From assembly GCA_965214615.1 (NCBI GenBank), contig OZ243952.1:2573734-2637733 (forward strand): 64,000 nucleotides of DNA, given 5' to 3'. The translations under genes and the position numbers were made by a program. The notes beneath the pieces are model-generated. The model saw only the letters and a list, made by a program, of their open reading frames with translations. It was not told the DNA's origin and ran no database searches. The stretch is from Arenicellales bacterium (lineage in GTDB: Bacteria; Pseudomonadota; Gammaproteobacteria; Arenicellales; JAJDZL01). Shown one piece after another: positions 1 to 42,793 of the stretch (position 1 is the first letter of the stretch; the number at the start of each line of letters is the position of its first letter).

Positions 1-350
1 CATCATCGTCTTCAACTTCAACTGTCGCCGACGATACCGAGCCCACCGTATAGCCATTTCCCGAATCCACGGTCGCGACGACAGTACTATCCGGTTCATC
101 CACAGCATCAGCAACCGTGCTGACACGCAGGGTCCCCGTTCCCGCGTTTTGGCTGCCAGCAACCGGTATGATTACCTGTTTGGATCCGATTCCAGAAGCC
201 GCAGTGACGCTGCCGCTCTCGCCGACTATGACATCTACAGTGAGGTTTGACGCCGGTGCAGGTGTTGCAGTCACTGTGAAACTCGCGTCCGTCCCCTCCG
301 TCGCAGGTGACGTGCCAGGGGCGATTGTGATATTCGGGTTCGCCGGATTG
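1..350 (-). repeat. Super-repeat SR17 (partial: A module only, continues beyond the window)
   Basis: This A module ends ...NGYTVGSVSSATVEVEDDD at 58..2. It is ~92% identical at nucleotide level to the A module of SR15 (1-150 vs 6331-6480). Confidence 0.7.
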
Positions 351-3300
351 TCATTGTCCAGAATAAAGGCGCTCCAGTGAAGAAGACGTGCCGAATCATC
401 AGGCGGCGTACTCGGATCGATCGTAATTTGTTTTTCCCCAGGATCACTTCTTAGCGAGAAGTTGAAAACCTCAGTCGATTCGACTTCATTGTCCTCGGTC
501 GCCGTAAAGGAAACCGACTTTTTTGTTTCTCCGGGAGCGAAAACGGCATCGAATCTAGTTTGCCCATTCTGCAACCTGTAATCGTTGACTTGATGAGCAG
601 ATTTCGTGCCTGGTGGACAAGGTGGAGTATTTAAAAAATCACAAGCATACAGATTAAATTCGAGTTCTTTTTCTGTACTCGCTGCCGGGGTCAAAGTTAT
701 CTCAATAGTTCCGCGCTCACCTTCGGTGACAGTTGGAACCTCAACTTTGAGTTTCCGCAAAGCCGAACCTGTGATGTCGTTCACTGTGACATCGAAACTG
801 TTCATCGAAGCGCTTGCGTGAGGAGCCGCGCCGCTCATTACGTTCGTGCCTAATGTAGGTTCACCGAATGCAGTGGTCGAACCGAGTGCAATCTCGAAGG
901 TCTCCCGATTCGCTCCGTTGCCTTCTGCCGTATTGTCGACTTGCGCCCACAATACCAGGATCGCAGACTGCGCTGCGGCATCTTCAAAACGCACAACCGG
1001 TGTCGAAGTGCTGCTGCCCGAAAGATTGACACCAGTGTTAATCGTCGCTCCGTGTTTTTCCCCCACGACCCAGTCAGCCGTGGTCACGCCAGTGCCGCCG
1101 ATGTCGAGCGGTACATCGACAATCTCACCTGCGGTCAGCTCTCGTGCCAGTGTTACTTTGAACTCAATCGACTGACCCTCATCGATAGCACCTGAGCCTG
1201 TGCGCGACAGGCTCACCACCACCGGGTCTGCGTCCGTTATGGTGCCGGTTGCGCCAAGAGTGACACTGCCACCGTCAAGAGTTGCATTCACAGGAGATGA
1301 AAGCCGGACTTTCACTGTCTCGTCAACGACTTCGTTTATTCCGTCATTCAGGACGGTGATGTCAATGTATTGGGTCGTTTCACCTGCGCCAAAGGTCAGT
1401 GTGCCTGCAGTCAGTGCACTATAGTCAACTCCCTGAGTTGCTGTGCCACCGGAAATCTCAGCATAATCGACAGTCACCTTCTTGCTACTTCGCGGCGCAA
1501 GCGTGACTGTGAACCGCAATGTCGAAGCGGTACCGTTGGTACCTTCGACAACACTCGGATCATCGATGGACAGCACCGGTTCATTATCGTCGTCTGTAAT
1601 TGAGAAGGCCACGGTGCCTGAACCGGCAGCGCCGCCACCGAGATTCGTACCTGAATCGGCATCCAGAGTGCCCAAACCCAGTGTCACCGACTCGTCTACC
1701 TCGTCGATCCTGTCGTTGACTGCTTGAATTGAAAGTGTTGCACGCCCCAAAGCTCCAGCTACGCTGGTAAAAACAATGGTCGGTGGCTGCTTCGCGATGT
1801 CAGCACTCGAAAGATTCTTGTAGCTGACTCCTTTAGGGATGACTGTGTCAAACGTGTAATCAGTACTTAATCGGTAATCTGTGAGGAATTCGGCAGCCCC
1901 TCCAAATATGAGTGGCACCTCCAGCATTTCATCGCCTTTAAGCACACGGCCAAGCTCGACTGTGAAATTCGTTCTTCCACGATTTGTACCGCCTCTCTCG
2001 GTAATTGCGGTTCCAACCGGAGACGAAAGCGTGACCTCGGTCGCATCGCTGTCAACAAGCTCAATACTGTGGCTGGTCGTGGTGCCAAGCTTGGCGTGAG
2101 CATCAGCGCCAAGATCCACGGAAAACGCTTCCACCAGTTCATCATCATTGTCATCAGTGAGTGTGACAATGATGTTCTTACTCACATCATCCTTGCCGAA
2201 AACGAAGCTCGTCATCGTAGTCGCAGTAAAATCACTGCCGCCTATCGCAGTACCGTCAACGGTGGTATAGCTGAGCGTCGCATCCACCAATGTAGTACCG
2301 GTCTTGGCAACGCTAAGCGTCACCGTACCGTCATCTTCGGCTACAGTGGTAGAAGATGTCGAAAATTCAAAACTTGGCACATCATCTGCATCGGTAATGG
2401 TGCCAATGGCTGAACGCGCGCTTGAGTTCAAGCTGAAGTGGGTCGTGCTATCGAGTGTCAAGGTAAGATAATGATCACTCTCGTAGGTTTGGTCATTGGT
2501 CGTCGCAATGCTCACGGTACCGCTTCGCTGACCTTGGGCGATGGTCAGTGTCGCATTGCTAGCCGCTGTATAGTCTGCACTGGTTGCAACCTGATAAGCC
2601 GCATCTGTCGGGTGGCTGCGCCCATCCGATGTCGAATAGACGATGTCCACACCCCCGCTTGGCGCGGCCCCCGGAAGCGTCACAGTGAATTCCACCGCAT
2701 TGCCCTCTGGCGCGCTGGCGGCGGTCACACTGATACCGGCATCATCGTCCAAAATCGGTATGGCAACCGAACCGGTGGCGTTGATTCCGCCCGACAACCC
2801 TGACGAAGAAGGCGCCCGGGCGCTTGTTCCGTAGGCAATGTTCAGCGTGCGAGCCATCTGGTCGCTGTTGTCAACCGCAGTAAATGTCAGTGTCGCAGTC
2901 CTTCCACCTGAACTTGAAAAAATTAAAGCCGGATGCTGGGCGCTGTGCGGGCTTTGCGTATTGAGCGTGACACCGGTGCTGCCATCTGTTAATCCATAGG
3001 TGTAATGTGTGGTTGCCGTTGCACCGGTCACCGCAAGCGGAACTGTCACACTTTCTCCGTCAGCCAATTGTCTTCCAAGCGTCACGGTCACATCTGCCGT
3101 GCCACCGTCCTCGGCTATACCCCCTGAACCTGAACGCGCAAGTGTCACGGTGGTGGCATCGTTGTCTTGAACTTCAACCGTCGCCGAAGGGGGTTCGACC
3201 ACCGTATAGCCGCTTCCTGATTCCACGGTCGCGACGATTGCGCCATCGAGTTCATCAACTTTGTCGCCATCCGTGCTGACAGTCAGCGTCGCTGTGCCCG

Positions 3301-6300
3301 CGTTTTGGCTGGTTGCAGACGGTATGATCACCTGTTTCGACCGGATGCCACCAGCGGGTGTAAAATTTCCTACCTCGCTGACCGCGACATCTACAGTGAG
3401 GTTTGCCGTTGGCGCAGGCGTTGCTGTCACTTGGAAACTCGCATCCGTCCCCTCGGTCACCGGCGACGTGCCAGAAGAAATCGTAATGTAGGGATTCGCC
3501 GGGTTATCATTGTCCAGGATAGCAACATGCCAAAAACGCCAAGGCCTTTCAGCATCATCCGGTGTAATCGCATAATCAGGCGGTGTACTCGGATGGATCT
3601 CTATTTTATTCGAATGTTCAGGGTATTGCAGTATGGCAATATATTCAGTCGATTCGACTAAACTGTCATCGGTCGTCGTAAAGGTGAATGACTGCTTCGT
3701 CTCGCCGGCGGCAAACATGACGAATTGGTACGATTGGTCATATTCTGATATGATGGAATAGTCAGCGCCATATGATGCAGGTTTCGTACCCGGCGGGCAA
3801 GGAGTGTATGAGCCGCAAGATGATCCATCAAATCCAAATATAGTTAGCTCGTCAAACGATCGACTTAAAGTCATTTCAACAGTGCCGCTCCCGCCTTCGA
3901 TAACAACGGCCGGGACATCAACCCTAAGTGTCCGCTTGACCGACCCCGTGATGTCGTTCACCACGACCTCGAAACTGTTCATCGAAGCGCTTGCGTGAGG
4001 AGCAGCGCCGCGCTTTACGTTCGTACCGAATGCAGGATTACCGAATGCAGTGTTCGATCCGAGTGCAACCTTGAAAGTCTCCAGAGTCGTTCCTGCGCCC
4101 TCAGCGGTGTTGTCGACATTTGCCTCGAGAATCAATGTCGCAATCTTGGCTCCTGCGTTTTTAAAACGTATCACCGGTGTCGAAGTGTTCGTGCTTGAGA
4201 GGCTGACACCACTGTTTAATGTCGCACCTGCTTTCTTGCTAAGATTCCAGTCCGCGGTGGTCACGCCCGTGCCACCGATATCAAGTGGCACATCAACTAT
4301 CTCATCTGCAACCAACACCCGGGACAACGTTACCGTGAGCTCTACCGTCTGACCCTCATCTATAGCCCCTGACCCTGACCGCGCCAAACTAACCTCGACC
4401 GGGTCATGGATGATGGTACCGGTTCCGTCAACGGTAACGCCGCCACCATTTAAAGATGCATTCACCGGAGATGAAAGCTGAACTTTCACAGTTTCATCCA
4501 TGAGTTCATGTTGGCCATCATTAAGCACTGTAATGTCAATGTATTTGGTCGTTTCGCCCGCTGCAAAAGTCAGTGTGCCCGCAGTCAGCGCTCTATAGTC
4601 AACTCCTTGCGTTGCCGTTCCACCTGAAGTCTCAGCATAATCCACGGTCACTTGCCGAGAGCTGGCAGCGGAGAGCTCTACCGTGAACCGTAAAGTCGAA
4701 GTAGTCCCGCTCACACCTTCGCCAACGCTCGGAGCGTCGATGGACAGTACCCGCCCGTCATCATCTTCAATTGCGAAGCTCACCATGCCTGATCCGGCGG
4801 CACCGCCGGCGAGGCTGACGTCTGAATTCACAATCAAAGTACCTAAACCGATGGTCACCGACTCTTGCGCTTCGTCGACGGAGTCGTCAATTGCCTTAAG
4901 GCCAAGTATCGCAAGCTTCGATGCTCCAGCCACACCGGAAAAAACGATGGTCGGCGGCTGGTTCACAAGATCAGTACTCGCAAGATTCTTGTAACGCACT
5001 CCTTTTGGAAGCGAAGTGAATCCTTTAAACGCGTAATCAACGGTCAAGCTGTAGTCTTCGCCGAAGACAGCATCGCCTCCAATATCAAGGGGCACCTCGA
5101 TCGTTTCGTCACCTGTCAGTGCGTGGCTAAGCTCGACTGTAAACGTCGTCCTTCCGCCTGTAGTGCTTCCGTCCTCGGTGATTGTGACCCCCGGGGACGA
5201 AAGCGTTACCCCAACCGGATCGTTGTCAGTAATCTCAATGGCGTGACTGGCCATGCTGCCAAGCTTGGCGTGTTCGCCCGCGGTGATATCTACGGTGAAC
5301 GATTCTGTCGGTTCATCGTCAGCATCATCGGTTATAGCCACAGTGATATCCTTGCTCGTATCGTTCTTGCCGAAAACAAGGTCTGTACTCTTGATCAAAG
5401 TGAAATCACTACCGCCCGTCGCGGTTCCGTCAACGGTGATATAGCTGACCGTCGCATCAAGCGGCGTGGCACCGGTCTTTTCGACGGTAAGTGTCAACGT
5501 ACCATCATCTTCTGCTGCATTGGTAGAGCTTGTCGAAAATTCAAAACTTGGCGCATCATCGTCATCGGTAATGGTACCAGTGGCTGAATTCGCATTTTGG
5601 TTTAAGCTGAAGTGATTCGTACTGTTGAGCGTCAACGTAAAATAATGATCGCTCTCGTAGATCTGATCATCTGTCGTTGCAATGCTCACGGTACCGCTTT
5701 GCTCACCTTGGGCGATGGTCAGTGTCGCCCCGCTTGCTGTCGTATAGTCTGAACTAGTCGCACTCTGATAGACCGGGTCTTGCGACTGTGCGCGCCCATC
5801 CGATGTCGAATAGACGATGTCTACACCCCCGCTTGGCGCAGCCTGCGGCAGCGTCACAGTGAATTCCACCGCATTGCCTTCTGGCGCGCTGGCGTCGGTC
5901 ACGCCGACCCCCGCATCATTGTCCAAGATCGATATGGCAACCGAACCGGTGGTGCTGATACCGCCCGATAGCCCAGTCCAAGAAGGTGCCCGGGTGCCTG
6001 TTCCTAAGGCAATGTTTAGCGTGCGTGCCGTCTGGTCGGCGTTATCAACTGCAGTGAATCTCAGTGTCGCGGTCTTTGCACCTGAACTTGAAAAGATTAC
6101 AGCCGGATTCTGAGCACCGTGCGGGCTTTGCGTATCGAGTGTGATACCGGTGCTGCCATCTGTCAATACATAGGTGTAATGCGTGGTTGCCGTTGCACCT
6201 GTCACCGCAAGAGGAACCGTCACACTTTCACCTGCAACCAAATGCCTTCCAAGCGTCACGGTCACATCTGCCGTACCGCCGGCCTCGGCGACCGCACCTG

Positions 6301-33300: not shown

Positions 33301-36300
33301 AGTTCGAACCGAGCGAAACCTCCAAGGTTTCAGCACCCGCACCATCACCTTCTGCGAGATTGTCAGCTGGCACCCCTAGCACCAGGGTGGCAGTCTTGGT
33401 ACCCTCACCTCTGAGACGCACCATCGGCGTCGAAGTGTTTATGCCCGAGAGACGAACACCGGAATTCAGACCTGTACCAGGCTTGTCAGAAAGACCCCAA
33501 TCGTCGGTGGTTATTCCCATACCGCCAATAAGCAGCGGAACATCAATAATCTCACCGCCAACCAAAGCTCGAGACAAATCTATAGTAAACTCGACAGACT
33601 GTCCTTCGTCGACAGCACCTGATCCTACACGATTGAGGCTTACCACCGTGGGATCCTCGTCGTTAACGGCGACCGAAGCCGAGGACGACGTACCCACTAT
33701 ATAGCCGGCGCCTGCATCTAGAGTCGCAACAATATCGGGAGTGGCGCCAGTGGAGTAGTCTGTGCCATCGATGGTAGGGACGGTAAATGTCGCTGTTGTC
33801 GAACCCGCTAAAATAGACGACTGCCTCGAACGGGTCCCACCGCGGAGGGCATCGCTCGCCGTAAGATCCACAGTGAAGCTCGCAGTCGGCGCTGGCGTCG
33901 CGGTCACGGTGAAGGTCGCGGGCAATCCTTCTGCAACCGCAGAGTCGTTTGAAGCGATCGTAACGATAGGATTCGCTGAATTGTCGTTATCTTGTATGTA
34001 AACATTCCATAGAGGCCTTTGAGGCTGAATAAAGGTGTTGAAACTGTCAGGCGGCGTAGCGGAATCAATGGTGAATGGGCCAGCAAGTTCGAACACGAAA
34101 ACCTCTGTCGGTTCGCTTACATTGTCGTCGGTGATCGTGAACGGGACAGTCTTGGTCGTAACGCCTCGATTGAACACAAGCGTTCGATCTTGGAGGGAAA
34201 ACGAATAGTCGTTGGACGAAGCAGTAGTGGTACCGGAAATATCAACAACCGCAACAAGTCCTACCAACTGCTCTTCCGGAGGGTGACTCAGAGTAAATTT
34301 GAGGGTGCCGCTGTCACCTTCGGTAAATGTCGGGTATTCTACCTTGAGTGTCGGCACGCCAACTGCTGCAACATCGTTTACCTTGACTTCAAAGCGGTGC
34401 ATTGCGGGATTTGGATGCGGATTCGCACCACCACCGACATTGGTGCCCAGCGTGTTCGAGCCAAACGCCTCGCTAGAACCGAGCGCGAGCGCAAAAGTCT
34501 CAAAGTTCGACCCATTACCCTCCGCAGTGTAGTCACGTTTTGCTGTGAGTATCAGTGTCGCGGACTTGGCACCCGCTCCGGTGAAAATTACCACTGGAGT
34601 TGAACTTAGAAGACGCGATAAACTGACGCCTTTATTGAGTTTGGCATCAGAGTGTTTAGAAAGATTCCAATCGGCAGGCACTACCCCCGCGCCGCCGATC
34701 TCCAGCGGTACATGGACAATCTCACCAGCCTTCAGTGCTCGACCCAGCGTTACCTTGAATTCAACCGCCTCACCCTCGTCAATGGGACCAAAACCTGTCC
34801 GTGCGAGACTGACGACCGTAGGGTCACCGTCTTCAATCTCAACTGACGCGGAAATCGATTTTGCAATCGTGTAGCCGGTTCCCGAATCCACGGTCGCGAC
34901 GATGGTGCCGACGGTACCAGTGGGGTCGTCTACTCCGTCAGACGTACGGACGCTGAATGTCGCTGTATTCGCTGCCGCCGGAAACAACACCTGCTTCGAT
35001 CCGATCTCTGCGCTCGGCGCTCCATTGCCGGTCCCACTGACCATCATATTTACGTTAAAACTGTCTGCTGGAGTTGGCGTCGCAGTCAACGTAAAGGTCG
35101 CAGGGGATCCCTCTGTTACTGACGATGTGCCAGGAGCTATGGTGATATTTGGGTTTTTCGGGTTATCGTTGTCCAAAATACGGACATACCAGTAAGCTTC
35201 TACATCACCGGACCCGCCGCCACTTGTTGACAAAAAGCCGTAAGGCGGTGTTTTTGGATCTATTGTGGCTTCACTGGGGTGGAGACCCTGCAAACCGATC
35301 AAAAAAACTTCAGTGGACTCAACCGTGCTGTCATCGGTCGTCGTGAACGCAAACGTCTTGCTCGTTTCACCCGGGGCAAACGTATAACTGGTTGTGGTTA
35401 CTGGAAAAGATGCCGACTTGTAGTCCGCAGACCATGTAGCTTCATCGACACCTGGCGGGCAGACAGACGATGAGATTTGACTGCAACCAGCCCCGACAAA
35501 AAAGAGTCTGATATCGATACTTTGGCTTACTGGTCGGCTTAAAGTGAACTTGATTGTACCGCTGTCACCCTCAACAACAGTTGGAGCCTCGACTTTGAGC
35601 GTCGGAACAGGCAATACGAAGTCATTGACCTGTAACTCGAAGCTGTGCATTGCAGCATCCGTGTTGCGCCTGGCACCACCGCCGACATTGGTAAGGCGAG
35701 AATTCGCGTCGAATGCCGTGTCTGAACCAAGGATAAGCGTGAATGTTTCGCCACCCGCGTCGCCGCCTTCTGCAACATAGTCAATGTTCGTCTGCAGCAA
35801 AAGGGTTGCAGTTCTGGCTCCAGAATCTCTAAAACGCACCACCTTCGTTCTTTCAAAAACAGAAACTTCGGGCAAAGTGACTCCCGAGTTGATACTCGAA
35901 CCAGACTTCTTGGAAACAGACCAATCGCGCGACCAATTACTACCGCCGCCATTGATGCGCAACGGCACATCAATAATCTCACCTGCGACCAACTCTCGAG
36001 ACAGTGTCACTGTAAACTCAGCCGTCTCACCTTCGGTGACAGCGCCCGAACCCACGCGTGCGAGGCTCACCACTGTGGGATCATCGTCGGTGATCTCAAC
36101 CGTAGCCGAGGACGATGTACCCACTGTATAACCGGTTCCTGAATTCAAGGTCGCAACGACAGTACCACTGCTCCCTTTAGGCTTATCCACATCGTCTTGC
36201 ACTGTCCCGATGGTAAATGTCGCCGAACCCGCATTGTTCCCTGATGCTGGAATGGTCACTTGTCTCAAGATAGACTGATTGGTACCCTGGCTGCCTTCCC

Positions 36301-36487
36301 CAACGTTCACTTTGAGGTTTGATGTCGGCACTGGTGTAGCAGTCACCGTGAAGGACGCTGAAGCCCCCTCTGATACCGATGCGGAATCGGCGGCAATGGT
36401 AACTGTCGACGAAGCCGACGCATTTGATGTATTTGCGAGTACTGCGAGAAGTACCGCCAATACCACAAATTGCAGGAATTTATGCAT
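1..36487 (-). CDS. Giant secreted Calx-beta-like tandem-repeat surface protein (putative Ca2+-dependent adhesin). At least 12,162 aa lie in the window and the 3' end lies beyond coordinate 1
   Basis: My own minus-strand translation starts at ATG 36487: MHKFLQFVVLAVLLAVLANTSNASASSTVTIAADSASVSEGASASFTVTATPVPTSNLKVNV... The same frame (first base of each codon at a coordinate = 1 mod 3) still reads ...NGYTVGSVSSATVEVEDDD at 58..2. Spot translations are all in this frame: 1441-1480 KVTVDYAEISGGTA, 1801-1850 DTVIPKGVSYKNLSSA, 5371-5461 LDATVSYITVDGTATGGSDFTLIKSTDLVFGK, 7081-7141 GGASGSGSLSFAITDNEIKK, 8571-8690 ATVEVQDDDATTVTLARSGSGAVAEDGGTADVTVTLGRQ. The ORF track lists no minus ORF in this frame anywhere in 1-36487, which fits a single unterminated ORF. 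The GTATxGxD[FY] motif and D-rich module ends (DDD, DNDN) are the Calx-beta signature. Confidence 0.9.
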   Translation of the reverse strand, partial: MHKFLQFVVLAVLLAVLANTSNASASSTVTIAADSASVSEGASASFTVTATPVPTSNLKVNVGEGSQGTNQSILRQVTIPASGNNAGSATFTIGTVQDDVDKPKGSSGTVVATLNSGTGYTVGTSSSATVEITDDDPTVVSLARVGSGAVTEGETAEFTVTLSRELVAGEIIDVPLRINGGGSNWSRDWSVSKKSGSSINSGVTLPEVSVFERTKVVRFRDSGARTATLLLQTNIDYVAEGGDAGGETFTLILGSDTAFDANSRLTNVGGGARRNTDAAMHSFELQVNDFVLPVPTLKVEAPTVVEGDSGTIKFTLSRPVSQSIDIRLFFVGAGCSQISSSVCPPGVDEATWSADYKSASFPVTTTSYTFAPGETSKTFAFTTTDDSTVESTEVFLIGLQGLHPSEATIDPKTPPYGFLSTSGGGSGDVEAYWYVRILDNDNPKNPNITIAPGTSSVTEGSPATFTLTATPTPADSFNVNMMVSGTGNGAPSAEIGSKQVLFPAAANTATFSVRTSDGVDDPTGTVGTIVATVDSGTGYTIAKSISASVEIEDGDPTVVSLARTGFGPIDEGEAVEFKVTLGRALKAGEIVHVPLEIGGAGVVPADWNLSKHSDAKLNKGVSLSRLLSSTPVVIFTGAGAKSATLILTAKRDYTAEGNGSNFETFALALGSSEAFGSNTLGTNVGGGANPHPNPAMHRFEVKVNDVAAVGVPTLKVEYPTFTEGDSGTLKFTLSHPPEEQLVGLVAVVDISGTTTASSNDYSFSLQDRTLVFNRGVTTKTVPFTITDDNVSEPTEVFVFELAGPFTIDSATPPDSFNTFIQPQRPLWNVYIQDNDNSANPIVTIASNDSAVAEGLPATFTVTATPAPTASFTVDLTASDALRGGTRSRQSSILAGSTTATFTVPTIDGTDYSTGATPDIVATLDAGAGYIVGTSSSASVAVNDEDPTVVSLNRVGSGAVDEGQSVEFTIDLSRALVGGEIIDVPLLIGGMGITTDDWGLSDKPGTGLNSGVRLSGINTSTPMVRLRGEGTKTATLVLGVPADNLAEGDGAGAETLEVSLGSNLAFDAQVLGTNVGGGADPHASAAMNSFEIKVNDTTATSSAPTLKVKVPAVTEGEKGVIELVLSHPVSDPVQFFVRSLVCSDALAPRCPEDTGKAKLGEDFSTDFSQSSISLTFAPGETYKSLLYTTSDDSDVELTEVFYFALNSLDPSKAAIDLSTLPDVSKGRNSAGADAYWYVRIVDNDSTANPNVTIAPGDSPVTEGTDATFIVTAVPAPAAGIDVNVAISEVITGAASKQIGSQSVSVPASTGHASTATLTVTTADTVDEPTGRIVASIKPGNRYRVGAVASATVEVEDDDSTTVMLAREGSAGISEDGGTVDVAVTLGRQLAAGESVTVPLVVTGATVGTHYTYALTDDSDSISLSALSPHNTQNPAVIFSGVGARGAILRFTGVDNSDQTARTLSVDYGTGVRAPFSSGLSGGLTTTGSVAVPIIDDENMISVTGAQAAEGNAVEFAVTLPQAAPSGGVGIDYSTSNGRGEQSDASHQVATTADYTSASSETLTIAQGQRSGTVSIATTDDQTYESDHYFTLTLDSTNHFSLNLSANTAIGTITDEQDLPRFGFSTPSTAANEGDGTVTLTVEKTGTTLLDASLSYATFDATATGGSDYTVIKSTDLVFGKDDTSKELTVTLRDDAADEMTEAFTVDLIATAGARLDTASSHSIEIADNDATRVRLSSAAESAIAEDGETTLIIDLNRALTGDEKLSVPLVVWGDASLGSDYTLSGVALSGVSYTNLDSTDLVNEPPTVSFSGAANASRRAVLTVKSIDDAVDETDLESVIVGLGAIDASLAMNLDGGVTGSGLVDFPIEDNDDLPVLSIDAPSTTEGNKLQFTVTLTPQSEKDVSVDYAEISGGTATSGVDYDELPAGTLIFPAGETTRNISITVLDDNSDESMDETVTVQLLSADNATLEGGGITLNSMGTIIDVNPTVVSLARTGSGAIDEGQKIEFTVTLVRELIASEIVDVPLDIGGAGVTTADWFLLGKAGASLNTGVSLSGTGTSTPVVRFSGARAKVATLVLGTPIDNIAEGGGTNLETIDVALGTKAAFSAGALGTNVDGGAVPNPVAAMSSFDIVVNDITAASAVPKLKVNVPAVIEGESGTIAIALSHTVNQSIVVNYSASQCTTSIPCPQGTNAASTASDLSFSSGSITFTPGETVKTISFATTDDNSNESTEAFLFVLDLLNSTKDLVFDAGTPADGTTVSEAYWFVRIHDNDNPANPSIAIAAGAAPAEGTGARFTVTATPTPSANITVNVTVSDIGGGAASGQTGARQVTIPASGNSAGTASFTVGTANDEMDNPKGTAIVATVNSGSGYKTGSSTSAIAEITDDEPTVVSLARVGSGAIDEGEAVEFTVTLSRELVAGEIIDVPLRINGGGSGWWRDLSVSRKSGSSINSGVNLPEVHFSERTRVVRFAGSGARTATLLLQTRIDNVAEGGDAGGETFTLNLGSDMAFDANSRRTNVGGGARRNADAAMHSFDLQVNDAVVPVPTLKVEAPTVIEGDSGAIKLILSRPSSRSISFRVYVGSIDCDRFSEEICPPDVGTARRPGDYNSSSFPRTTTLYTFDPGETSKTFAFTTSDDSTVESTEIFHISMLDLHPTEATIDSKTPPAGFYAFSGGSADVNAYWFIRILDNDNPANPNITIAPGTSPVTEGTAAGFTVTAAPAPATDLTLDISVSETGNIADSNDVGSKQVTIPAAGSQNEGTATLTVSTIDDTVDERNGAILATLDSGSGYTPGTSSSATVDVLDDDATTVTLARSGSGGVAEDGGTVDVTVTLGRELVDGESVTVPLSVTGATVRRHYTYVLTDGGSGVAHDTKLPHSSQNLAVIFSGAGAKTATVRFTAVDNNDQTSRVLNIAYGTGIRAPSSTGLSGGINAAGSIAIPIVDDDAGISLAAASAAEGNAVEFTVTLPQAAPSGGVDIVYSTSDGRAQSTDADYQVATSSDYTAASGATLAIAQGQRSGTVSIATTDDQAYESDHYFKLTLDSTNHFSIDPSASSAIGTITDEDDVPSFEFSTASTTASEGDGTLTLTVEKTGTTLLDSTLNFTTVDNTATGGSDFIAIKDAKLVFGKDDVSKDITVSLVDDTADEPVQAFGAVLSADAHSQLGSTVSHSIEITDNDATEVTLSSRFDGINTGETDRNYAVTIELNRALTGDETLAVPLVFGGAATFGADYWVSAFGSKIPGVRFMNLGSTNLTDNPPTIVFSGEDNAVRSASIVINIRFDDIDENDESLTVELGTLDEKSGTNLGGGATGSGTVGLTINDWSGSPVLSIDAPSAAEGGTLRFTVTLTPMSGKEVTVDYAEIAGGTATQAVDYTALTAGTLTFTPGQTTQHIDVAVLDSNTIDESIGKTMKVQLSNAVNASLMGGGNTLDGTGTIADNDPTVVSLARTGSGAIDEGKAFEFTVTLARTLIAGEIIDVPLKIGGTGVTTADWSLVTKSGMAINTGVSLSNTGTMTPVLRFEGAGAQIATLLIGAKIDNTAEGGGANQETFEIALGSNADFDANTLGTNVLGGADPHASAAMNSFEVVVNDITGSVKPTLRIDIPTVTEGESGAIELTLSRPADKRLVFNFGIDECGTSYTSPCPPGRKPASLDVDFSVQARYPPLLVGFAPGETKKSIPYTTTDDSSVESTEIFYLLLFGDFNANEIEIDPSTLPDDSVDYPHWHAAILDNDNPANPNIAISSGTSPVTEGTDASFQVTATPAPTANLTVDVAVSEAGSFTAAGGIGSKQVTIPSATSQNAGTATLTVSTDDDKVDELDGAIVATVDSGSGYTVGKPPSATVEVQDNDATTVTLARSGSGGIAEDGGTVDVTVTLGRPLVAGESVRAPVVFTGATHATHYTYVFEGGTGVTLYTDEFPFFADNPVVNFTGAGAKQAKFTFTAVNNNDQTERTLLVRFGTGGVQFGPSSSGLSGGISPGRSVSVPILDDDAGVGVTDASAPEGDAVEFTVTLPQAAPSGGVDIVYSTSDGRGQSADAAHQVATGAADYTAASSATLTIAEGEKSGTVSIATSDDQTYESDHYLTLTLASANPFSLNSSASSAVGTITDEDDVPSFEFSTSSTTAAEDDGTVTLSVARTGTTLVDATLSYTTVDGTAIGGGDFVAIAKTEFIFGKDDVSKNIIVTLTDDNDDEPAEAFSVDLGADAHAKLGTTTSHSIELADSDATEVTLTSPVGTAITEMGGTSGGRANFTVELGRALEGDETLEVPLIFGGAAEFLTDYILSTNYTRGADDFIPKGVSYKNLSSADIVNLPPTIVFTGPVGASRRATLSIRAVNDRFDETDESVTLGMGTLDANSGTNLGGGATGSGTVAFSITDNDDEPALSIDSPSAGEGNTLRFTATLTPASGKEVTADYAEITGGTATQGVDYTALTSGTLTFASGETTQHIDVMVLDSNALDESITKTMKVRLSNAVNATFAGGGVTLAGTGAITDNDPTVVSLARIDSGAIDEGQTAEFTVTLSRALIAAEIIDVPLNIGGTGVTAGDWFLGRKPGTGLNTGVSLLGTGTSSPVVRFENGAAEIATLVLGARIDNTAEGGGTNLETYEIALGSNAAFDAGTLGTNVGGGADPHTTDAMNSFDIAVNDIIGSATPTLKVEVPTVTEGGNGTIDLTLSRAASQSISIDLSTSRCSVGIPCPQGAKDASDSSDYSTDAPQSSTTVTFAPGEKFKTYSLTTVDDSEIESTEVIVFRLANLNSTEAAIDSTTPPDGTVSAESYWFIRILDNDNPANPNVTIAPGTSVAEGSPAIFTVTATPVPTANLTVDITVSDVGNSAASGQTGSKSVVIPASGLNAGSAQLSVGTVADSLDELPGQAGAIVATVDLGTGYTVGTLSSAKVEMKDDTPTVVSLARVGSGAIDEGETIEFTVTLSRSLIADEIIDVPLTIGGTGVTASEWSLVAKSGTGFNTGVTVSGENSLSPVVRFANAGSETATLVLEPQIDNTAEGGSANQEIFEISLGSNSAFDASTLGTNVDGGADPHSSGARNSFDVTVNDAAIIPPTLRVDVPVVTEGDQGTIDLTLSRASTKPVTINYIFWVCNLFDSPPCPTGTERAELDIDFVGVPSTFTLRFEPGQVKKSIPLTTIDDNAIESTEVFLFFMGMPNNLEATIDPSTPPDFSDIDFYWHVRILDNDNPANPNITITPDASPVTEGTNAAFTVTATPAPSVNTTVNLTVSETGNVAANSSTGSKQVQIPASGSLNAGTAKLTVSTVADTVDESTSTITARLHSGAGYTVSAASLAAVEVDDDDPTTITLTRTGSGGIAEDGGMADVTVSLGRALVAGESVTVPLTVTGASVTTHYSYILSEDDTGVYLETSGLHSSQDPAVRFSGADARTATLTFSAVDNNDQSARTIVINFGTGSRAPLFSRGSDGVSTHGSVSVPIVDDDAGISVTGARVPEGSAVEFTVTLPQAAPGGGVDIVYSTSDGRGESTDAAYQVATSSDYTAASEATLTIAQGQRSGTVSIATTDDQTYESDHFFTLTLDSTNHFSLNQSANSAIGTITDEGDVPSFEFSTSSSAVDEGDGTATLTVQKTGTTLVDATLSYTTVAATATSDIDFTAIKRADLVFGKDDSSKDITVSLSDDADDEPTETFTVDLIAGTHARLGSTSSRTIEITDNDATQVTILSAANKSFGESAPRQLATFSVELGRTLRDDETLAVPLAFGGDADFGIDYALSTEITEHSGSVIPKGVQFLNLTSTDHVNKPPTIVFTGVAGALRLASLALEPIEDTVEEDSESLTVSLGTLNASSGTDLDGGATGSGTVIFEITDDDYPTLSIDSPSVVEGADSGNASLRFAVTLTPASTRSVTVDYAEISGGTATQGVDYEALSAGTLTFAAGETIKYIDITVLDDSVDESIDETVAVRLSSAVNATLTGGGVTLDSTGTISDGNPTLVSLARTDSGAINEGETVGFTVTLARTLIFGDIIDVPLDIGGAGVTPADWGLSKKAGASLNTGVTLYGETTSTPVVRFEGVGAKTATLTLEAKHDDHAEGGGTNQETYTIALGANTAFDDSKLGTNVGGGADPNTAGELNSFDVTVNDRSALPLLKVEVPTVTEGDSGAIEFTLNRPMDKQIAPIVNVRVCGISTTAPCPAGTKPATPDVDFTMQPEPSQINARFPNEFHIKFAPGETKKSLSFTTTDDSAVEPTEVFDLWIDLFNSKGVAFDPSTPPDVTDVRDHWQARILDNDNPANPNITISPIASPVTEGADARFQVTATPAPTTNLTVGVTVGESGNVTAAGGIGSKQVTVPAAGRSNAGTATLIVSTVADAVDEPDGAILATVNSGSGYTVATATSSATIEVQDYNATTVMLARSGSGAVAEDGGTADVTVTLGRQLVAGESVTVPLAVTGATATTHYTYVLTDGSTGVTLNTQSPHNAQNPAVIFSSSGARTATLTFTAVDNSDQMARTLNIAYGTSARAPSSSGLSGGINATGSAAIPILNDDAGISVTDAGAQEGNAVEFTVTLPQAAPGGGVDIVYSTSDGRGESTDAAYQVATSSDYTAASSATLTIAQGQRSGTVSIATTGDQIYESDHYFTLTLNSTNHFSINQSAKSAIGTINDEDDVPSFEFSTSSAVAAEDDGTLTLTVEKTGTTLLYAQLSYKTVDGTATGDSDFTLIKSTDLIFLKDDTSKDVTVTVTDDADDELAESFTVDITADEHAKLGNLSSHSIEITDNDPIEVTLSSPVGATITELGGTSGGRTNFTVELSRVLTGDEALEIPLVFSGDAVFGRDYELTTDYNFASSGSSDSPVVFFKNLASDDPVNKPPTIIFTNLPLTSKLGILGLRAIDDSSDEELESVTIDLATLDANSGTNLDGGAAGSGTVTFSIVDNDDEPALSIDAPSVAEGTNGATSTLRYTVTLAPVGGKEVTVDYAGISGGTATQGVDYKPLTAGTLTFSAGETTQHIDITVFDDDIDETADETVAVQLSNPVNAKLTGGGATLDGTGTITDADPTIATLARTGSGAMDEGQTVEFTVTLSRTLLAGEIIDVPLEIGGTGVTAADWFVGENPAMGLNTGVSLPAANTSSSVVRFSGAGAQTATLLLGAKVDNTAEGGGANLETYEIALGSNAAFDANTLGTNVDGGADPNSTLSKNRFDIKVNDIKGLAVPKLKVDIPTVIEGDSGTIVLTLSRPAEKSIPFEVVAVKSLCTSASIPPCPTGTEAAQYDSDFTSNFSRIPVNLTFAPAEITKSLSFATTADNAAETTEIFEFLIGSLDSTEATIDSNTPADGFTIGSNPYWYVRIHDNDNPANPSITIAPGASPVTEETDASFTVTATPAPAANITVNLSVSDVENVAASGQTGSKQVVIPATGANAGTATLAIGTAADAVDESTGSISGAVTADLKSGTGYTVGTASSATVEIVDGDPTVVSLARVGTGTIKEGETVEFTVTAARELIAGEIIDVPLDIGGSGVTVSDWRLSAKSGSGLNTGVSLSAANTSIPLVRFEGVKAKTATLVLEARFDHLSEGGEAGAENFTIALGSDTAFGANTLGTNVGGGAKPNASASMNRFDVTVNDVASAVPTLSVKIPAIAEGETGTIELTLSEAATVPIGITVWASTIQGSNAASFQDFSGAFTSGVSLSFAPGQTSKTISFSVIDDNAIESTERFWFRIFDLESNEAVIDSTTPSDGTYNGIPHWHVDIHDNDNPANPNISIAAGKSPVSEGTAATFTVTATPTPNSNVTVDITVNDIGGGAVNGEAGARQVTIPASGNSAGTASFAVGTTTDEVDKPHGISIIANVDPGTGYTTGSVASATVEIFDDDPTVVSLARVGSGAIDEGESIEFTITLSRELVAGEIIDVPLRINGGGRLWWHDLSMSKKSGSSINLGVNLPAVAYDERNQVVRFKGSGARTATLLLQTSIDNVAEGGDAGAEIFTLNLGSDTEFDSDSRRTDVSGGARRNADAALHSFDLQVNDAVAPVPTLKVEAPTVVEGESSAVKLTLSQPASRSIEIGLFIGRLNCTGPDSNDCPPDVGTASFEDFQLPSYPPRPLIFAPGETSKTFAFTTTDDSEVEPTEVFIISLRLLFPGEATLDSNTPPYGFYPTSGGTYGTEAYWLARILDNDNPNNPNITIAPRTSPVTEGTGAGFTVTAAPAPATDLTVNVSVSESGNVAASDGVGSRQVTVPAAGSQNEGTATLTISTIADTVDELNSAILATLDSGTGYTLGTSTSATVDVLDDDVTTVTLARTGSGGIFEDGGTVDVTVTLGRELVDGESVTVPLAVTGATVATHYTYVLTDGSTGVTLNTQNPHSMQIPAVIFSDAGAKAATLRFTAVDNNDQTARTLNIAYGTGARAPSSIGLSGGISATGSLTIPIVDDEAGIGVTDASASEGNAVEFTVLLPQDAPGGGVDIVYSTSDGRGESTDAVYQSASGSDYTTASGATLTIAQGQRSGTVSIATTNDQTYESDHYFTLTLDSTNHFSLNQSANSAIGTITDEGDVPSFEFSTSSSAVDEGDGTATLTVQKTGTTLLDATLSYITVDGTATGGSGNDFTLIRSADLVFGKDDTSKDITVTVADDDDDEPAESFTVDISEGEHAKLGNLSSQSIEITDNDATKVTLSSRFNGSSPREAERSFAVTIELNRALTGDETLAVPLVFGGDATFGLDYTLSLSESSYTGVSFMNLDSADHKNKPPTVKFSGVANASQRAVLLLWIQNDLLIESTESITVGLGTLDGNSGTNLDGGAIGSGEIGFTIRDNDALPVLSIDDPSVTEDGNMQFKVTLAGTAAEAVTVDFSETAGDTATQGQDYEALSAGTLTFAVGETTKFIDITVVDDAIDDPTEETVAIQLSNLVNATFKGGGDTLEATGTITDNDPTLVSLARTGSGTIDEGQTVEFTVKLVRALVAGEIIDVPLEIGGTGVTTADWSVSKKTGLSFNTGITIFGTDTSSPTVRFKGAGAWTATLVLETLVDNTAEGSGADSETFKVSLGSNSAFNADALESNVAGGAVPHTSAARNSFNVTVNDITKRMLKVEVPTITEGESGTIKITLSPAASEQITLNFGLYPCDALNTPPCPPGTKSAHLGNDYGLQGSGNTVFDAVFAPGETEKSFSIATVLDNLVETTEVFNVRLRNNPDDKGVSIDPSTPPDDSGRLLHWNAFILDVDNPANPNITIAPGMSSVTEGANTSFTVTATPAPETNLTVDVKVSETGNFAKARIRSKQVIIPVAGGHNAGTATLIISTVDDFVDEPDGAIHATVDSGSGYTVGTASSATVEVQDDDATTVTLARSGSGAVAEDGGTADVTVTLGRQLVAGESVTVPLAVTGATATTHYTYVLTDGSTGVTLNTQSPHSAQKPAVIFSSSGAKTATLRFTAVDNSDRTARTLNIAYGTGARVPSSTGLSGGISATGSVAISILDNDAGVSVTDASAPEGDAVEFTVTLPQAAPIGGVDIVYSTSNGRGQSTDAAYQVATSADYTAASSATLTIAQGQRSGTVSIATTDDQIYESDHYFTLTLDRTSRFSLNQRANSATGTITDDDDAPSFEFSTTSTSAAEDDGTVTLTIKKIGATLLDATVSYITVDGSATSGSDFTLVKSTDLVFGKRDASKNITVTLNDDADDEPTESFNVDIAAGEHARLGSTTSHAIEIADNDAIEVTLSSSVGAAIAEDGSAIFTVQLGRALAGDETLEVPLNFSGDATFGVDYKLDRDYLVGGGNIKDPNGVSYRNLSSNDPVKRPPTIVFTAVAQASRDTTLAIRSIDDSVKNEGHESVIVGLGTLDANSGTNLGGGASGSGSLSFAITDNEIKKRTLSVVVPTVTEGESGTIELTLTPAASVAKTIEFILYACDAIHRPCPPGTNSAHQINDFTLQGGMNKYDAVFASGETKKSISFTTTEDNEVELTEVFNFALKDHPDSQQITIDPSTPSDGSGRLFHWSGFILDNDNPANPNITIAPGTSPVTEGTNAIFTVTAAPAPASNLIVDVIVGESGNVTAASGIGSKQVVIPAAGQNAGTGTLSVGTVADAVDEPDGTVVATVDSGNGYTVGTASSAIVEVEDDDATTVTLARSGSGAVAEAGGTADVTVTLGRHLVAGESVTVPLAVTGATATTHYTYVLTDGSTGITLDTQSPHGAQNPAVIFSSSGAKTATLRFTAVDNADQTARTLNIALGTGTRAPSWTGLSGGISTTGSVAISILDNDAGVGVTDASAPEGNAVEFTVTLPQAAPSGGVDIVYSTSDGRAQSQDPVYQSATSSDYTTASGATLTIAQGEQSGTVSIATTDDQIYESDHYFTLTLNSTNHFSLNQNANSATGTITDDDDAPSFEFSTSSTNAAEDDGTLTLTVEKTGATPLDATVSYITVDGTATGGSDFTLIKSTDLVFGKNDTSKDITVAITDDADDEPTESFTVDITAGEHAKLGSMASHAIEITDNDPVGVTLSSPGVTITEDGSTTGGRTTFTVELSHALTGDETIEVPLDIGGDAVFGEDYSLTVDYAFKGFTSLPKGVRYKNLASTDLVNQPPTIVFSGVAGASKLAILGLKAIDDSVDEAQESVTIGLGTLIVNSDVSLAGGAAGSGMVSFAIEDDDGRVLSIDAPSVGEGVSGTTSTLRFTVELSAASSRQVTVDYAETSGGTATQGVDYRALTAGTLTFAAGETTKYIDITVLNDGQHELMDETVKVQLSSPVNASLNGGGVTVDGTGTIIHDPVEVSLARSGSGAIDEGQTVELTVTLSRVLVADEIVDVPLDIGGTGVTTADWNLSKKAGATLNSGVSLSSTNTSTPVIRFKNAGAKIATLILEANVDNTAEGAGTTLETFKVALGSNTAFGNPAFGTNVKRGAAPHASASMNSFEVVVNDITGSVKRTLRVDVPAVVIEGGSGTVEMTLSRSFDELTIFGFDGSSCGSYTPCPPGTKPASYGADYSIISEYDQSYQFVMFAAGETKQSFTFTTTDDSLVESTEYIAILQYPEHSNKIEIHPSTPPDYAITPDDAERPWRFWHVAILDNDNPANPYITISSGTSPVTEGTDASFQVTATPAPTANLTVDVAVSEVGNFTPAGGIRSKQVIIPSATSQNAGTATLTVSTDGDKVDELDGAIVATVESGSGYTVVEPPSATVEVQDNDATTVTLARSGSGGIAEDGGTADVTVTLGRQLADGESVTVPLAVTGATATTHYTYGLTDGSTGVTLNTQSPHSAQHPALIFSSSGGRTATLTFTAVDNSDQMARTLNIAYGTSARAPSSSGLSGGINATGSVAIPILDDDAGISVTAASAPEGNAVEFTVTLPGAAPSGGVDIVYSTSDGRSHPTDAAYQVATSADYTAASNATLTIAQGQRSGTVSIATTNDQTYESDHYLTLTLDSTTHFSLNSSARSAIGTITDADDVPSFEFSTSSTTVAEDDGTVTLSVAKTGTTLVDATLSYTTVDGTAIGGSDFTATTMTSFVFGKDDVSKNIIVTLTDDNDDELVEAFSVDLGADAHAKLGTTTSHSIELVDSDATEVTLSSPVGTAITERGGTNRGRTNFTVELGRVLKGDEMLEVPLIFGGAAEFLTDYRLSTDYTFDTVIPKGVSYKNLSSADIAKQPPTIVFTSVAGALGRATLSIQAVNDRIDEVDESVTLGLGTLDADSGTNLGGGAAGSGTVAFSITDDDNEPVLSIDDPSVVEGTNGTASTLRFTVTLAPRSSKKVTVDYAEISGGTATQGVDYSALTAGTLTFGAGETTQYIDITVLNDGINEVVDETVKVRLSSPVNATLDGGSVTLGATGTITDADPVVVSLSRTGSGAIDEGQSIEFKVTLARELTAGEIVDVPLDIGGTGVTTADWVVGEKHGATINTGVNLSGSSTSTPVVRFEDAAAQSAILVLWAQVDNTAEGNGANRETFEIALGSTTAFGEPTLGTNVMSGAAPHASASMNSFDVTVNDITGSALRKLKVEVPTVTEGERGTIEITLTPAASTEKELEFNLYACDFLNTPPCPPGTKSAHQVNDYRLQNGQTRFDAVFAPGETKKSVSFTATEDNEVESTEVFNFSLRSDPGEKQITIDPSTPPDDSARLLHWSAFILDNDNPANPNITIAPGTSPATEGTDASFTVTATPAPASNLTVDVIVGESGSVTAASGIGSKQVIIPVAGSQNAGTGTLRVSTVADAVDEPDSTVVATVDSGNGYTVGSVSSATVEVEDDD
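351..3505 (-). repeat. Super-repeat SR16 (long: A-H)
   Basis: Junction motifs at ~3505 and ~350. C-module marker ORF 2643..2834. The H copy reads LYACDFLNTPPCPPGT (606-652). Confidence 0.7.
3506..6675 (-). repeat. Super-repeat SR15 (long: A-H)
   Basis: Approximate module limits: A 6352-6675, B 5925-6350, C 5560-5925, D 5225-5560, E 4765-5225, F 4400-4765, G 3950-4400, H 3506-3950. C-module marker ORF 5817..6113. The H copy reads DGSSCGSYTPCPPGTK (3781-3830). Confidence 0.7.
6676..9000 (-). repeat. Super-repeat SR14 (intermediate: A-B-C-D-E-H; modules F and G missing in frame)
   Basis: The unit is only ~2.33 kb. The E module end runs straight into an H module: ...GGASGSGSLSFAITDNEIKKRTLSVVVPTVTEGESG (7141 downward). 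Antisense ORF 6933..7331 uniquely fuses the H-type and E-type shadow motifs. C-module marker ORF 8145..8336. Confidence 0.75.
9001..12120 (-). repeat. Super-repeat SR13 (long: A-H)
   Basis: Junction motifs at ~12120 and ~9000. C-module marker ORF 11262..11453. Confidence 0.7.
12121..13372 (-). repeat. Super-repeat SR12 (short: A-G-H), subfamily Sa
   Basis: The G variant is VPLRINGGGRLWWHDLSMS (12861-12915) and the H copy has GRLNCTGPDSNDCPPD (12395-12445). Off-frame marker ORF 12574..12930. Confidence 0.75.
13373..14570 (-). repeat. Super-repeat SR11 (short: A-G-H)
   Basis: Junction motifs at ~14570 and ~13372. The H copy (ELTLSEAATVPIGITVWASTIQGSNAASFQDF, 13600-13700) lacks the Cys pair. 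Confidence 0.7.
14571..17745 (-). repeat. Super-repeat SR10 (long: A-H)
   Basis: Junction motifs at ~17745 and ~14570. C-module marker ORF 16884..17075. Confidence 0.7.
17746..20912 (-). repeat. Super-repeat SR9 (long: A-H)
   Basis: Junction motifs at ~20912 and ~17745. A divergent C-module marker ORF lies at 20097..20351. Confidence 0.7.
20913..22128 (-). repeat. Super-repeat SR8 (short: A-G-H)
   Basis: Junction motifs at ~22128 and ~20912. No C-module marker ORF lies inside it. Confidence 0.7.
22129..25280 (-). repeat. Super-repeat SR7 (long: A-H)
   Basis: Junction motifs at ~25280 and ~22128. C-module marker ORF 24417..24746. The H copy reads TSRCSVGIPCPQGAKD (22381-22430). Confidence 0.7.
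25281..28402 (-). repeat. Super-repeat SR6 (long: A-H)
   Basis: Junction motifs at ~28402 and ~25280. C-module marker ORF 27546..27737. Confidence 0.7.
28403..29660 (-). repeat. Super-repeat SR5 (short: A-G-H), subfamily Sa
   Basis: The G variant is VPLRINGGGSGWWRDL (29161-29210) and the H copy has VYVGSIDCDRFSEEICPPDV (28690-28745). Off-frame marker ORF 28780..29223. Confidence 0.75.
29661..32752 (-). repeat. Super-repeat SR4 (long: A-B-C-D-E-F-G-H)
   Basis: Junction motifs at ~32752 and ~29660. The C module is marked by antisense ORF family member 31902..32093 (MPTPPLGAACGSVT...). Confidence 0.7.
32753..33978 (-). repeat. Super-repeat SR3 (short: A-G-H)
   Basis: Junction motifs at ~33978 and ~32752. 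The H copy reads FFVRSLVCSDALAPRCPEDTG (33028-33090). Confidence 0.7.
33979..35160 (-). repeat. Super-repeat SR2 (short: A-G-H)
   Basis: Bounded by H->A junction motifs at ~35160 and ~33978. Its H copy (KFTLSHPPEEQLVGLVAVVDISGTTTASSNDYS, 34200-34300) lacks the Cys pair. Confidence 0.7.
35161..36412 (-). repeat. Super-repeat SR1 (short: A-G-H), subfamily Sa
   Basis: It directly follows the signal peptide. The G module has the variant VPLRINGGGSNWSRDW (35921-35970) and the H module has CSQISSSVCPPG (~35450-35490). Off-frame marker ORF 35539..35982. It ends at the H->A junction (..LDNDNPKNPN) at ~35160. Boundaries are +/-15 nt. Confidence 0.75.
36413..36487 (-). other. Sec-type signal peptide of the giant protein (about 23-25 aa)
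   Basis: MHK (positive n-region), FLQFVVLAVLLAVLA (hydrophobic core), NTSNA|SA (small-x-small cleavage motif). There is no lipobox cysteine. Confidence 0.6.
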
Positions 36488-36505
36488 GCCCCAATTTGCG
36501 GGGGA

Positions 36506-37876: not shown

Positions 37877-37909
37877 ATTGGGGGAAGACCCTGACTTGTA
37901 TCTGTTGCG

Positions 37910-38297: not shown

Positions 38298-38373
<76 letters not shown>

Positions 38374-42772: not shown

Positions 42773-42793
42773 GCATGAATCGGGGCGGATCCT

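Follow-up and report, generated by a model that had tools for sequence, protein, structure and literature searches.

How a single bacterial gene of more than 36 kb is assembled from many related protein modules, and whether the order of these modules reflects a function or a history, is the question raised by a 64,000-nucleotide stretch of DNA from an Arenicellales bacterium (GenBank assembly GCA_965214615.1, contig OZ243952.1, positions 2,573,734 to 2,637,733 of the forward strand; this whole stretch is termed the window). A first-pass annotation had described a two-tier repeat grammar in a giant gene on the minus strand of the window, with short and long super-repeats interleaved. The reading which we hold to be probable, though well short of certain, is that this gene encodes a Sec-exported and probably Ca2+-stiffened bead fibre at the cell surface, and that its pattern of repeat units is a record of block duplication, in-phase deletion and gene conversion.

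The minus-strand frame is uninterrupted from window position 36544 to position 2, i.e. 12,181 codons in a single open reading frame (ORF; feature coordinates are collected in Table 1). The protein within the window comprises 12,162 amino acids (aa; 1.24 MDa) and is very acidic (pI 4.1), with 13% Thr, 11% Ala, 10% Ser, 10% Gly and 8% Asp. In a hydropathy scan, the N-terminal segment MHKFLQFVVLAVLLAVLANTSNASA was the sole strongly hydrophobic segment of the visible protein, and its layout is classical (n-h-c, with ASA) and of the Sec type. The orthologue described below (protein P0248) starts with MPKLLKFVVLAVLLAVLASASNASA, which confirms both the ATG at 36487 and the Sec-type signal peptide. 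The orthologous gene totals about 14.5 kilo-amino acids (kaa), and this suggests a similar total length for the giant protein, so that about 2.4 kaa would lie outside the window. A C-rich tract (nine C, T, five C; window 36500-36520) is located about 12 nt 5' of the start codon, where the orthologue reads ccctccttcccacccctctccc; the homopolymer is particular to this strain and may be either prone to slippage or an artefact of sequencing.

The array of units was delimited with a protein profile, built from 13 copies, that covers the junction and the A module next to it. It gave 16 strong matches (110-168 bits) in the giant protein, at residues 447, 842, 1250, 2281, 2699, 3743, 4792, 5196, 6252, 7312, 7712, 8128, 9169, 9945, 11002 and 12054, all within a few bases of the positions at which 16 copies of a junction motif had been annotated; the corresponding 24-nt DNA motif was matched 11 times with up to 3 mismatches, against 0 expected. 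The profile also recovered a 17th A module at the N-terminus, which has no preceding junction. The lengths of units 1 to 16 (405, 395, 408, 1031, 418, 1044, 1049, 404, 1056, 1060, 400, 416, 1041, 776, 1057 and 1052 aa) fall into a short class (S; n=7, 395-418 aa), a long class (L; n=8, 1031-1060 aa) and one intermediate (M; 776 aa), in the order S S S L S L L S L L S S L M L L, after which a 17th unit begins; the bimodal spacing and the order are those of the first-pass annotation. In the following, units are denoted by class and number (e.g. S5) and modules by type and unit (e.g. H05).

When the eight modules of unit 9 were used as phmmer queries, the protein was tiled without gaps as AGH (three times), ABCDEFGH, AGH, ABCDEFGH (twice), AGH, ABCDEFGH (twice), AGH (twice), ABCDEFGH, ABCDEH, ABCDEFGH (twice) and A. 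A short unit is thus exactly A-G-H, as had been proposed, and the intermediate unit, which had been noted as such, is now assigned the composition A to E plus H, without F and G. The module order A(BCDEF)GH is invariant across all 16 units, and to this extent the claim of a non-random, nested syntax holds. It does not extend to the succession of the units, as the S/L sequence has 8 runs versus 8.9 expected (runs test, P=0.43) and is indistinguishable from a random order; S units are mildly enriched toward the N-terminus (P=0.035).

The visible protein contains 92 modules of about 110-155 aa each. In an all-versus-all BLASTP comparison of these modules, median scores were 101-190 bits within types and at most 54 bits between types, and unsupervised average-linkage clustering recovered, at k=8, exactly the eight types that had been annotated, with the silhouette peak (0.49) at this value. 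The modules follow each other head to tail and without linkers, with an acidic boundary motif [IV]x[IV]xDxD plus two or three residues at every module boundary. The annotated junction motif does mark the 16 H-to-A sites, and it is one version of this general boundary motif, with a longer Pro-rich linker. The Pro-Ala codons of the junction read CCG-GCG in 12-14 of 14 copies, versus an expected codon identity of 0.26-0.32 (window 335-359 and the 15 other junctions), while synonymous sites beside them match expectation, so that these codons form a small island of uniformity at the DNA level. The junction was considered as an anchor of gene conversion and rejected as such, as only CCG-GCG and one GAC are unusually uniform and the other codons are at expectation. 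A family of antisense ORFs had been cited as an independent marker of C modules. It does occur in nine of nine C modules and nowhere else, but it gives no independent support, because it is the reverse-strand shadow of the GGVDI stretch of the most conserved module.

Calx-beta (PF03160) was the only Pfam family with convincing matches in the units (cut-off 27 bits): a long unit matched in four stretches (131.7 bits), and the match of a short unit was to its H module (29.6 bits). Profile-profile comparison (hhalign) linked B, E and G with each other (98.5-99.3%), F with H (98%), D with F (97%), C with F (95%) and A with F (78%); B, E and G were not linked to C, D or F, and the best link across was E-H (70%). 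As judged from these profiles, the modules belong to two classes, a Calx-beta-like class that comprises C, D, F and H and, more distantly, A, and a longer class of B, E and G. The H profile matches the first Calx-beta domain of the sodium/calcium exchanger, NCX1 CBD1 (E=1.5e-7), and the F module aligns with CBD1 including the acidic DDDIFEEDE loop; the acidic clusters of the E-F loop and the C-terminal DxD clusters align with the region of the CBD1 Ca2+ site, and the acidic clusters are conserved at the sequence level. The visible protein has 28 cysteines, all in H modules and two per module in 14 of the 16; they bound an inserted loop (C-x6-9-C-P-P-G) that directly precedes each junction and has been lost from H02 and H11.

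An AlphaFold2 (AF2) model of a short unit (predicted local distance difference test score, pLDDT, 77.5) has three all-beta domains, and a Foldseek search with it returned NCX1 CBD12 (3us9), integrin leg domains and alpha-2-macroglobulin. Every module is predicted to be a beta-sandwich. Module C09 (window 19787-20149) belongs to the most conserved type and is canonical Calx-beta by Pfam, yet it is the worst-modelled part of the long unit, probably owing to its shallow alignment of nine sequences.

The B, E and G modules, of about 150 aa each, make up about one third of all modules; there was no Pfam match in these modules, and their combined profile (B+E+G) gave no sequence match in the PDB. 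A search with the same profile yielded 1,852 cluster representatives at E<=0.001 and 371 at 1e-30, many of them of 3-7.8 kaa; modules of this kind (e.g. window 18176-18634) often occur in 10-35 copies per protein among these representatives. B, E and G appear to constitute an uncatalogued repeat-domain family. They would define a class of about 150 aa beyond the coverage of Pfam and PDB, with about 1,850 cluster representatives, many of them giant proteins.

The copies are old and under purifying selection. Exact DNA repeats reach 156 nt at most, paralogous tracts share 64-86% identity, and synonymous divergence (dS) between copies is mostly >1 and mostly saturated. The ratio of nonsynonymous to synonymous divergence (dN/dS) is 0.19-0.30 for every module type, and therefore each copy has been kept functional. 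The ancestry of the units is mosaic, in that the nearest partners of the modules of one unit lie in different units: for unit 16, those of A, D and E are in unit 7, that of B in unit 10, and those of C and H in unit 14. In the module trees, S1, S5 and S12 form a clade with bootstrap values of 80-100 for A, G and H, a separation of S from L lacks support, and the A and H trees conflict for units 7, 9 and 10. Copies of blocks larger than a unit are also recognizable, i.e. S5 together with the beginning of L6 is similar to S12 together with the beginning of L13, and L7 to L16. A single event for the origin of S11 and M14, via a 7.3-kb paralogous tract (aa 2004-4397 versus 7442-9817), was considered and rejected; the clear block duplicate in this tract is only S5-L6(A-C) versus S12-L13(A-C), and G11, H11 and unit 14 have other nearest partners. 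The grammar contains two skips, from A to G in the short units and from E to H in the single ABCDEH unit. Both join exactly at domain boundaries, and in each the first module dropped and the module that follows the gap are of one class (B and G; F and H).

Residues 20-3984 of the window protein align collinearly with the orthologue P0248, at 89.7% identity. Its locus (L012; ENA ERZ25070917, contig ctg123249) is syntenic, with panC, an alcohol dehydrogenase gene, a hexapeptide transferase gene, an S49 peptidase gene, glnS, gshB, gltX, the helix-turn-helix (HTH) gene and the giant gene, the last called as two ORFs of 4,071 and 10,453 aa. These are split by a local frame break within unit 7 (L012 21800-22310, B/C modules), which may be a sequencing error or a real disruption. 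Over the available 22 kb, the module string of L012 reads S S S L S L L S L L, as in window units 1-10, and nearly every module is the positional counterpart of a window module. Because the orthologue from another assembly repeats the order of units 1-10, the unit order is not a product of misassembly.

The two strains are 97-100% identical in most modules (dS 0-0.08, background about 0.02), and much more diverged in G01-H01, H02, unit 5, A to E of unit 6, H09 and unit 10. Four modules, H02, H05, H09 and E06, are only 57-86% identical (14-43% aa difference) with a dN/dS of 1.1-1.8, a ratio that is noisy on single modules of about 150 codons. H05 is the most divergent of these (just 57% identical), with its Cys-bounded loop wholly replaced. 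The substitutions in all four are spread over loops and the framework residues are kept, and therefore frame errors are not their source. Conversion by paralogues visible in the window was rejected as the source of the divergent orthologue modules, as the positional counterpart is the best or an equal match among the window paralogues.

Relatives of the giant protein are numerous, and the AGH/ABCDEFGH grammar was found only in the orthologue among them. Other giants of the superfamily (P0249-P0317, L007 and L008), among them dozens of 3-7.8 kaa, have grammars of their own, such as aEaEaE, G.G.G., BCDE.Ff and ae.ae.ae. Two of these genes are present in the same sample as the orthologue (ERZ25070917), L007 on ctg114011 (9,722, 1,050 and 922 aa) and L008 on ctg103131 (2,880 and 1,811 aa), and carry BCDE and F blocks amid module types that are absent from the window. 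Fragments whose assignments include Gammaproteobacteria, Synechococcus and Acidimicrobiaceae carry the (A)BCDE(F) block at about 50% identity. The H-junction-A pair was found in proteins of 1.1-2.3 kaa in metagenome-assembled genomes (MAGs) of Dehalococcoidia and of Alphaproteobacteria (Thalassobaculaceae), with H scores of 154-166 bits, and G-A pairs were also found in other proteins; the presence of one H-A cassette in more than one phylum may point to horizontal exchange. In the smaller proteins with this cassette, Pfam found neither a secretion nor an anchor domain. The C-terminus of a distant relative (P0250) consists of more mosaic immunoglobulin (Ig)-like modules and ends as a fragment, with nothing on anchoring.

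With respect to habitat, a scan of metagenomes of the JGI type gave two matches only, LXNI and LXNJ, both Mediterranean sponge metagenomes, and several protein relatives are from SB06xx bins, a series that is listed among sponge-associated Entoporibacteria bins. Calx-beta domains are enriched in sponge symbionts of several phyla (PMC9531527, PMC11706023), and the aggregation factors of sponges are themselves Calx-beta proteins that act in a Ca2+-dependent manner (PMC5400394).

For the origin of the unit pattern, we propose that blocks of several modules were duplicated along the gene, that in-phase deletion or recombination between paralogous module starts then gave rise to AGH and ABCDEH units, and that later gene conversion scrambled which copies are closest, while purifying selection would keep each copy foldable. 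The product would be an extended beads-on-a-string fibre of about 0.4 micrometre, stiffened by Ca2+ and displayed outside the cell for adhesion or for interaction with a matrix. Block duplication with in-phase deletion is the likeliest course because the skips join at domain boundaries and the first module lost is of the class of the one that follows the gap. Several points weigh against this reading. There is no B/G chimera in the S units and no F/H chimera in unit 14, the junctions being at linkers, and the G modules of S units are G-like from their first residues; since no chimeric module is visible, the case for deletion is drawn from the positions of the breakpoints, and selection for in-phase products would by itself yield the same picture of breakpoints. 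The S unit could also be ancestral and B-F an inserted cassette. Furthermore, the AF2 model of a long unit is weak (all-beta, pLDDT 66, C module <40) and was kept out of the fold search, and the C-terminus (about 2.4 kaa by the orthologue), which may hold parts for anchoring or export across the outer membrane, is beyond the window.

That S and L are distinct segments of the fibre in a selected arrangement, e.g. L as ligand-binding core with its C module and S as spacer or hinge, is the interpretation given in the first-pass annotation, which had proposed a fibre alternating two structurally distinct segments. The order common to units 1-10 of two strains, the high conservation of C (by far the most conserved type, 80% median identity), the purifying selection on every copy and the enrichment of S toward the N-terminus are all in keeping with it. 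On the other hand, the units neither alternate nor recur periodically, the modules of S are a strict subset of those of L, all modules are of one predicted fold class, S and L are not separate lineages, and the shared order may reflect recent common ancestry and not selection, because the background dS between the strains is as low as about 0.02. We therefore do not retain the proposal of alternating segments and consider a selected arrangement unlikely; the S/L order is best regarded as a trace of history that has been conserved. The chance that the order or number of units stems from mis-joined or collapsed repeats is close to nil. Long repetitive genes are often mis-assembled, and the orthologous contig does contain a frame break in unit 7, but the copies share only 64-86% DNA identity with no exact repeat longer than 156 nt, the frame is open for 36.5 kb, and the contig from the other assembly, with positional orthology for nearly every module, effectively refutes such an artefact.

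Two further interpretations concern the role of the fibre and its route of export. A fibre that imitates or engages the Calx-beta-built aggregation factor of a sponge host, with the strain-variable H modules as recognition surface, would fit the Ca2+-dependent sponge factors, to which the likeness is at the level of the domain family, as well as the enrichment of Calx-beta in sponge symbionts of several phyla, the finding of the nearest relatives and of shared cassettes in sponge metagenomes and in MAGs of several phyla, and the difference of 14-43% in H02, H05 and H09 against a background identity of 98-100%. We regard this as quite improbable, since the sponge link, which also touches our own reading, is drawn from sequences of relatives and their habitats and not from the habitat of the source genome, since giants with Calx-beta domains are also found in non-sponge taxa, e.g. 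Planctomycetes and Actinomycetota, and since the elevated dN/dS is from single modules. A broader variant is a symbiont surface organelle in which a fixed scaffold grammar would present a few strain-specific recognition modules (H modules and one E), either to engage or mimic the Calx-beta system of the host or as a decoy for phage or host immunity, with cassettes maybe exchanged among unrelated symbiont phyla; host engagement or mimicry is conceivable because sponge adhesion and self-recognition use Ca2+-dependent Calx-beta aggregation factors, and we offer this variant as a distinctly unlikely one. If the sponge link holds, the giant protein would be a concrete candidate among the poorly understood, 'eukaryote-like' Calx-beta proteins of sponge symbionts. 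A type-1-secreted RTX adhesin of the LapA, MpIBP or SiiE kind, with the visible part as extender region and with RTX repeats and secretion signal in the unseen C-terminus, is very improbable. The giant acidic protein with its Ca2+-type boundary motif at each domain is adhesin-like overall, and there is a weak match to a LapA domain in unit 14 (PF20579, E=0.024), a family that is also precomputed in several homologues. Substrates of type 1 secretion systems (T1SS) have no N-terminal Sec signal peptide, whereas the giant protein has one that is kept in the orthologue; no GGxGxDxUx motif was found in the 12,181 visible aa (the C-terminal 2.4 kaa or so being outside the window), no ABC transporter, membrane fusion protein (MFP) or TolC genes are present in the 27 kb on the visible side, and the repeats are diverged and not near-identical.

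The giant gene looks like the occupant of a variable, tRNA-adjacent insertion slot (36488-38540), because a locus with a 74% identical gltX (L011) holds, after the same tRNA-Ala(GGC), PhdYeFM/PIN toxin-antitoxin and Fic genes and no giant gene (L011 11414-16301), and because the G+C content of the giant gene (53.5%; spacer 49.6%) is below that of the flank (57%). Apart from the tRNA and the small HTH gene, the window from 36.5 to 64 kb contains housekeeping and metabolic genes (gltX, gshB, glnS, sohB, panC and others) and one gene of the YhgA-like transposase family. The gene for glutamyl-tRNA synthetase (gltX, 38541-39956, minus strand) and that for a GlnRS-type class I synthetase (40763-42772, plus strand) flank gshB, and a 659-aa minus-strand ORF (41021-43000) is a shadow of the latter. 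A multicopper oxidase fused to a cytochrome c domain, of NirK-like architecture, is encoded at 49074-50543, and the YhgA-like (Transposase_31) protein gene is located among the housekeeping genes at 52651-53637.

Table 1. Features of the giant gene and its surroundings (window coordinates unless a locus is named)
Feature	Coordinates	Strand	Basis or remark
Giant gene	2..36487	-	ATG at 36487; 12,162 codons in window; frame still open at left end, C-terminus outside
Signal peptide MHKFLQFVVLAVLLAVLANTSNASA, Sec-type	36413..36487	-	hydropathy scan and sequence, judged by eye
Unit 1, short A-G-H	35207..36421	-	profile junctions, unit lengths, phmmer tiling; S1/S5/S12 subfamily
Unit 2, short A-G-H	34022..35206	-	H module without Cys pair
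Unit 3, short A-G-H	32798..34021	-	junction profile and tiling
Unit 4, long A-B-C-D-E-F-G-H	29705..32797	-	junction profile and tiling
Unit 5, short	28451..29704	-	S1/S5/S12 subfamily
Unit 6, long	25319..28450	-	tiling
Unit 7, long	22172..25318	-	tiling
Unit 8, short	20960..22171	-	tiling
Unit 9, long, reference unit	17792..20959	-	Pfam Calx-beta 131.7 bits, 4 stretches
Unit 9, module A	20564-20902	-	
Unit 9, module B	20150-20563	-	
Unit 9, module C	19787-20149	-	
Unit 9, module D	19451-19786	-	
Unit 9, module E	18992-19450	-	
Unit 9, module F	18635-18991	-	
Unit 9, module G	18176-18634	-	
Unit 9, module H (H09)	17735-18175	-	strain-variable, window versus L012
Unit 10, long	14612..17791	-	tiling
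Unit 11, short	13412..14611	-	H module without Cys pair
Unit 12, short	12164..13411	-	S1/S5/S12 subfamily
Unit 13, long	9041..12163	-	tiling
Unit 14, intermediate A-B-C-D-E-H, no F/G	6713..9040	-	tiling, boundary analysis
Unit 15, long	3542..6712	-	tiling
Unit 16, long	386..3541	-	tiling
Unit 17 start (junction and A module)	2..385	-	profile, tiling; truncated by window edge
Module H05	28394-28858	-	strain-variable, window versus L012
Module H02	33968-34363	-	strain-variable, window versus L012
Module E06	26516-26941	-	strain-variable, window versus L012
Small HTH_3 (XRE-type) gene	37910..38224	-	between tRNA and giant gene; kept in orthologous locus
tRNA-Ala(GGC)	38298..38373	-	between gltX and giant gene
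H-junction-A locus L002	9278-15904 (L002)		
H-junction-A locus L006	9155-15967 (L006)		
H-junction-A locus L003	4772-8245 (L003)		
H-junction-A locus L004			

The literature search returned nothing on bacterial 'super-repeat' giant adhesins. The statement of the first-pass annotation that the module syntax goes beyond that of typical giant adhesins is overstated, because the biofilm-associated protein (BAP) of Acinetobacter baumannii has a multi-type syntax and the relatives of the giant protein carry multi-module grammars of their own. BAP contains seven types of Ig-like repeats (A-G) with a reiterated EFG block and a strain-variable copy number (PMC4647330). The likeness to the giant protein, as a giant of several repeat types with multi-type block syntax, is architectural only: no homology was detected between them and no Big_3_4 (TDnAGN Ig-like repeat) Pfam match in any unit, and the giant protein differs in that its repeats are far more diverged, its grammar is stricter (one eight-module chain with two skips) and it starts with a Sec signal.

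With the Calx-beta proteins (PF03160; NCX1 CBD1 and CBD2), the giant protein shares modules C, D, F and H by sequence match and A by profile-profile match, the predicted beta-sandwich, and acidic clusters that align with the CBD1 Ca2+ site region; it differs by at least 92 modules in one chain, by the third of its modules (B, E and G) that is without Pfam or PDB sequence match, and by the Cys-loop insert of H. The RTX/T1SS adhesins (LapA, MpIBP, SiiE) have long acidic extender rods of beta-sandwich domains with Ca2+ sites at the domain junctions, and an N-terminal retention module in place of a Sec signal. They resemble the giant protein in the very long acidic rod and the presumed adhesive role, whereas the giant protein has a signal peptide, heterogeneous and old repeats, no RTX repeats in its visible part, and no T1SS genes on the visible side. 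An analogy, and no more than that, is found in the A-band of eukaryotic titin, where one giant chain likewise has two super-repeat lengths, each with a fixed order of domain types. The domains of titin (Ig and FnIII) are unrelated, and its two kinds of super-repeat form two contiguous blocks that match a physical periodicity, whereas S and L of the giant protein are interspersed without periodicity.

A further comparison is with the giants of the same superfamily (P0249-P0317, L007, L008), which share modules of the B/E/G and A classes, the BCDE(F) block and the H-junction-A and G-A pairs, each in a grammar that differs from AGH/ABCDEFGH. The giant protein is viewed as an adhesin-like giant and not as a new kind of system. 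It provides a clean and fully resolved case of the construction and evolution of a bacterial surface protein in the megadalton range, with a deterministic eight-module chain and two in-phase skips, with old and constrained copies, and with a conserved order beside a few hypervariable modules.

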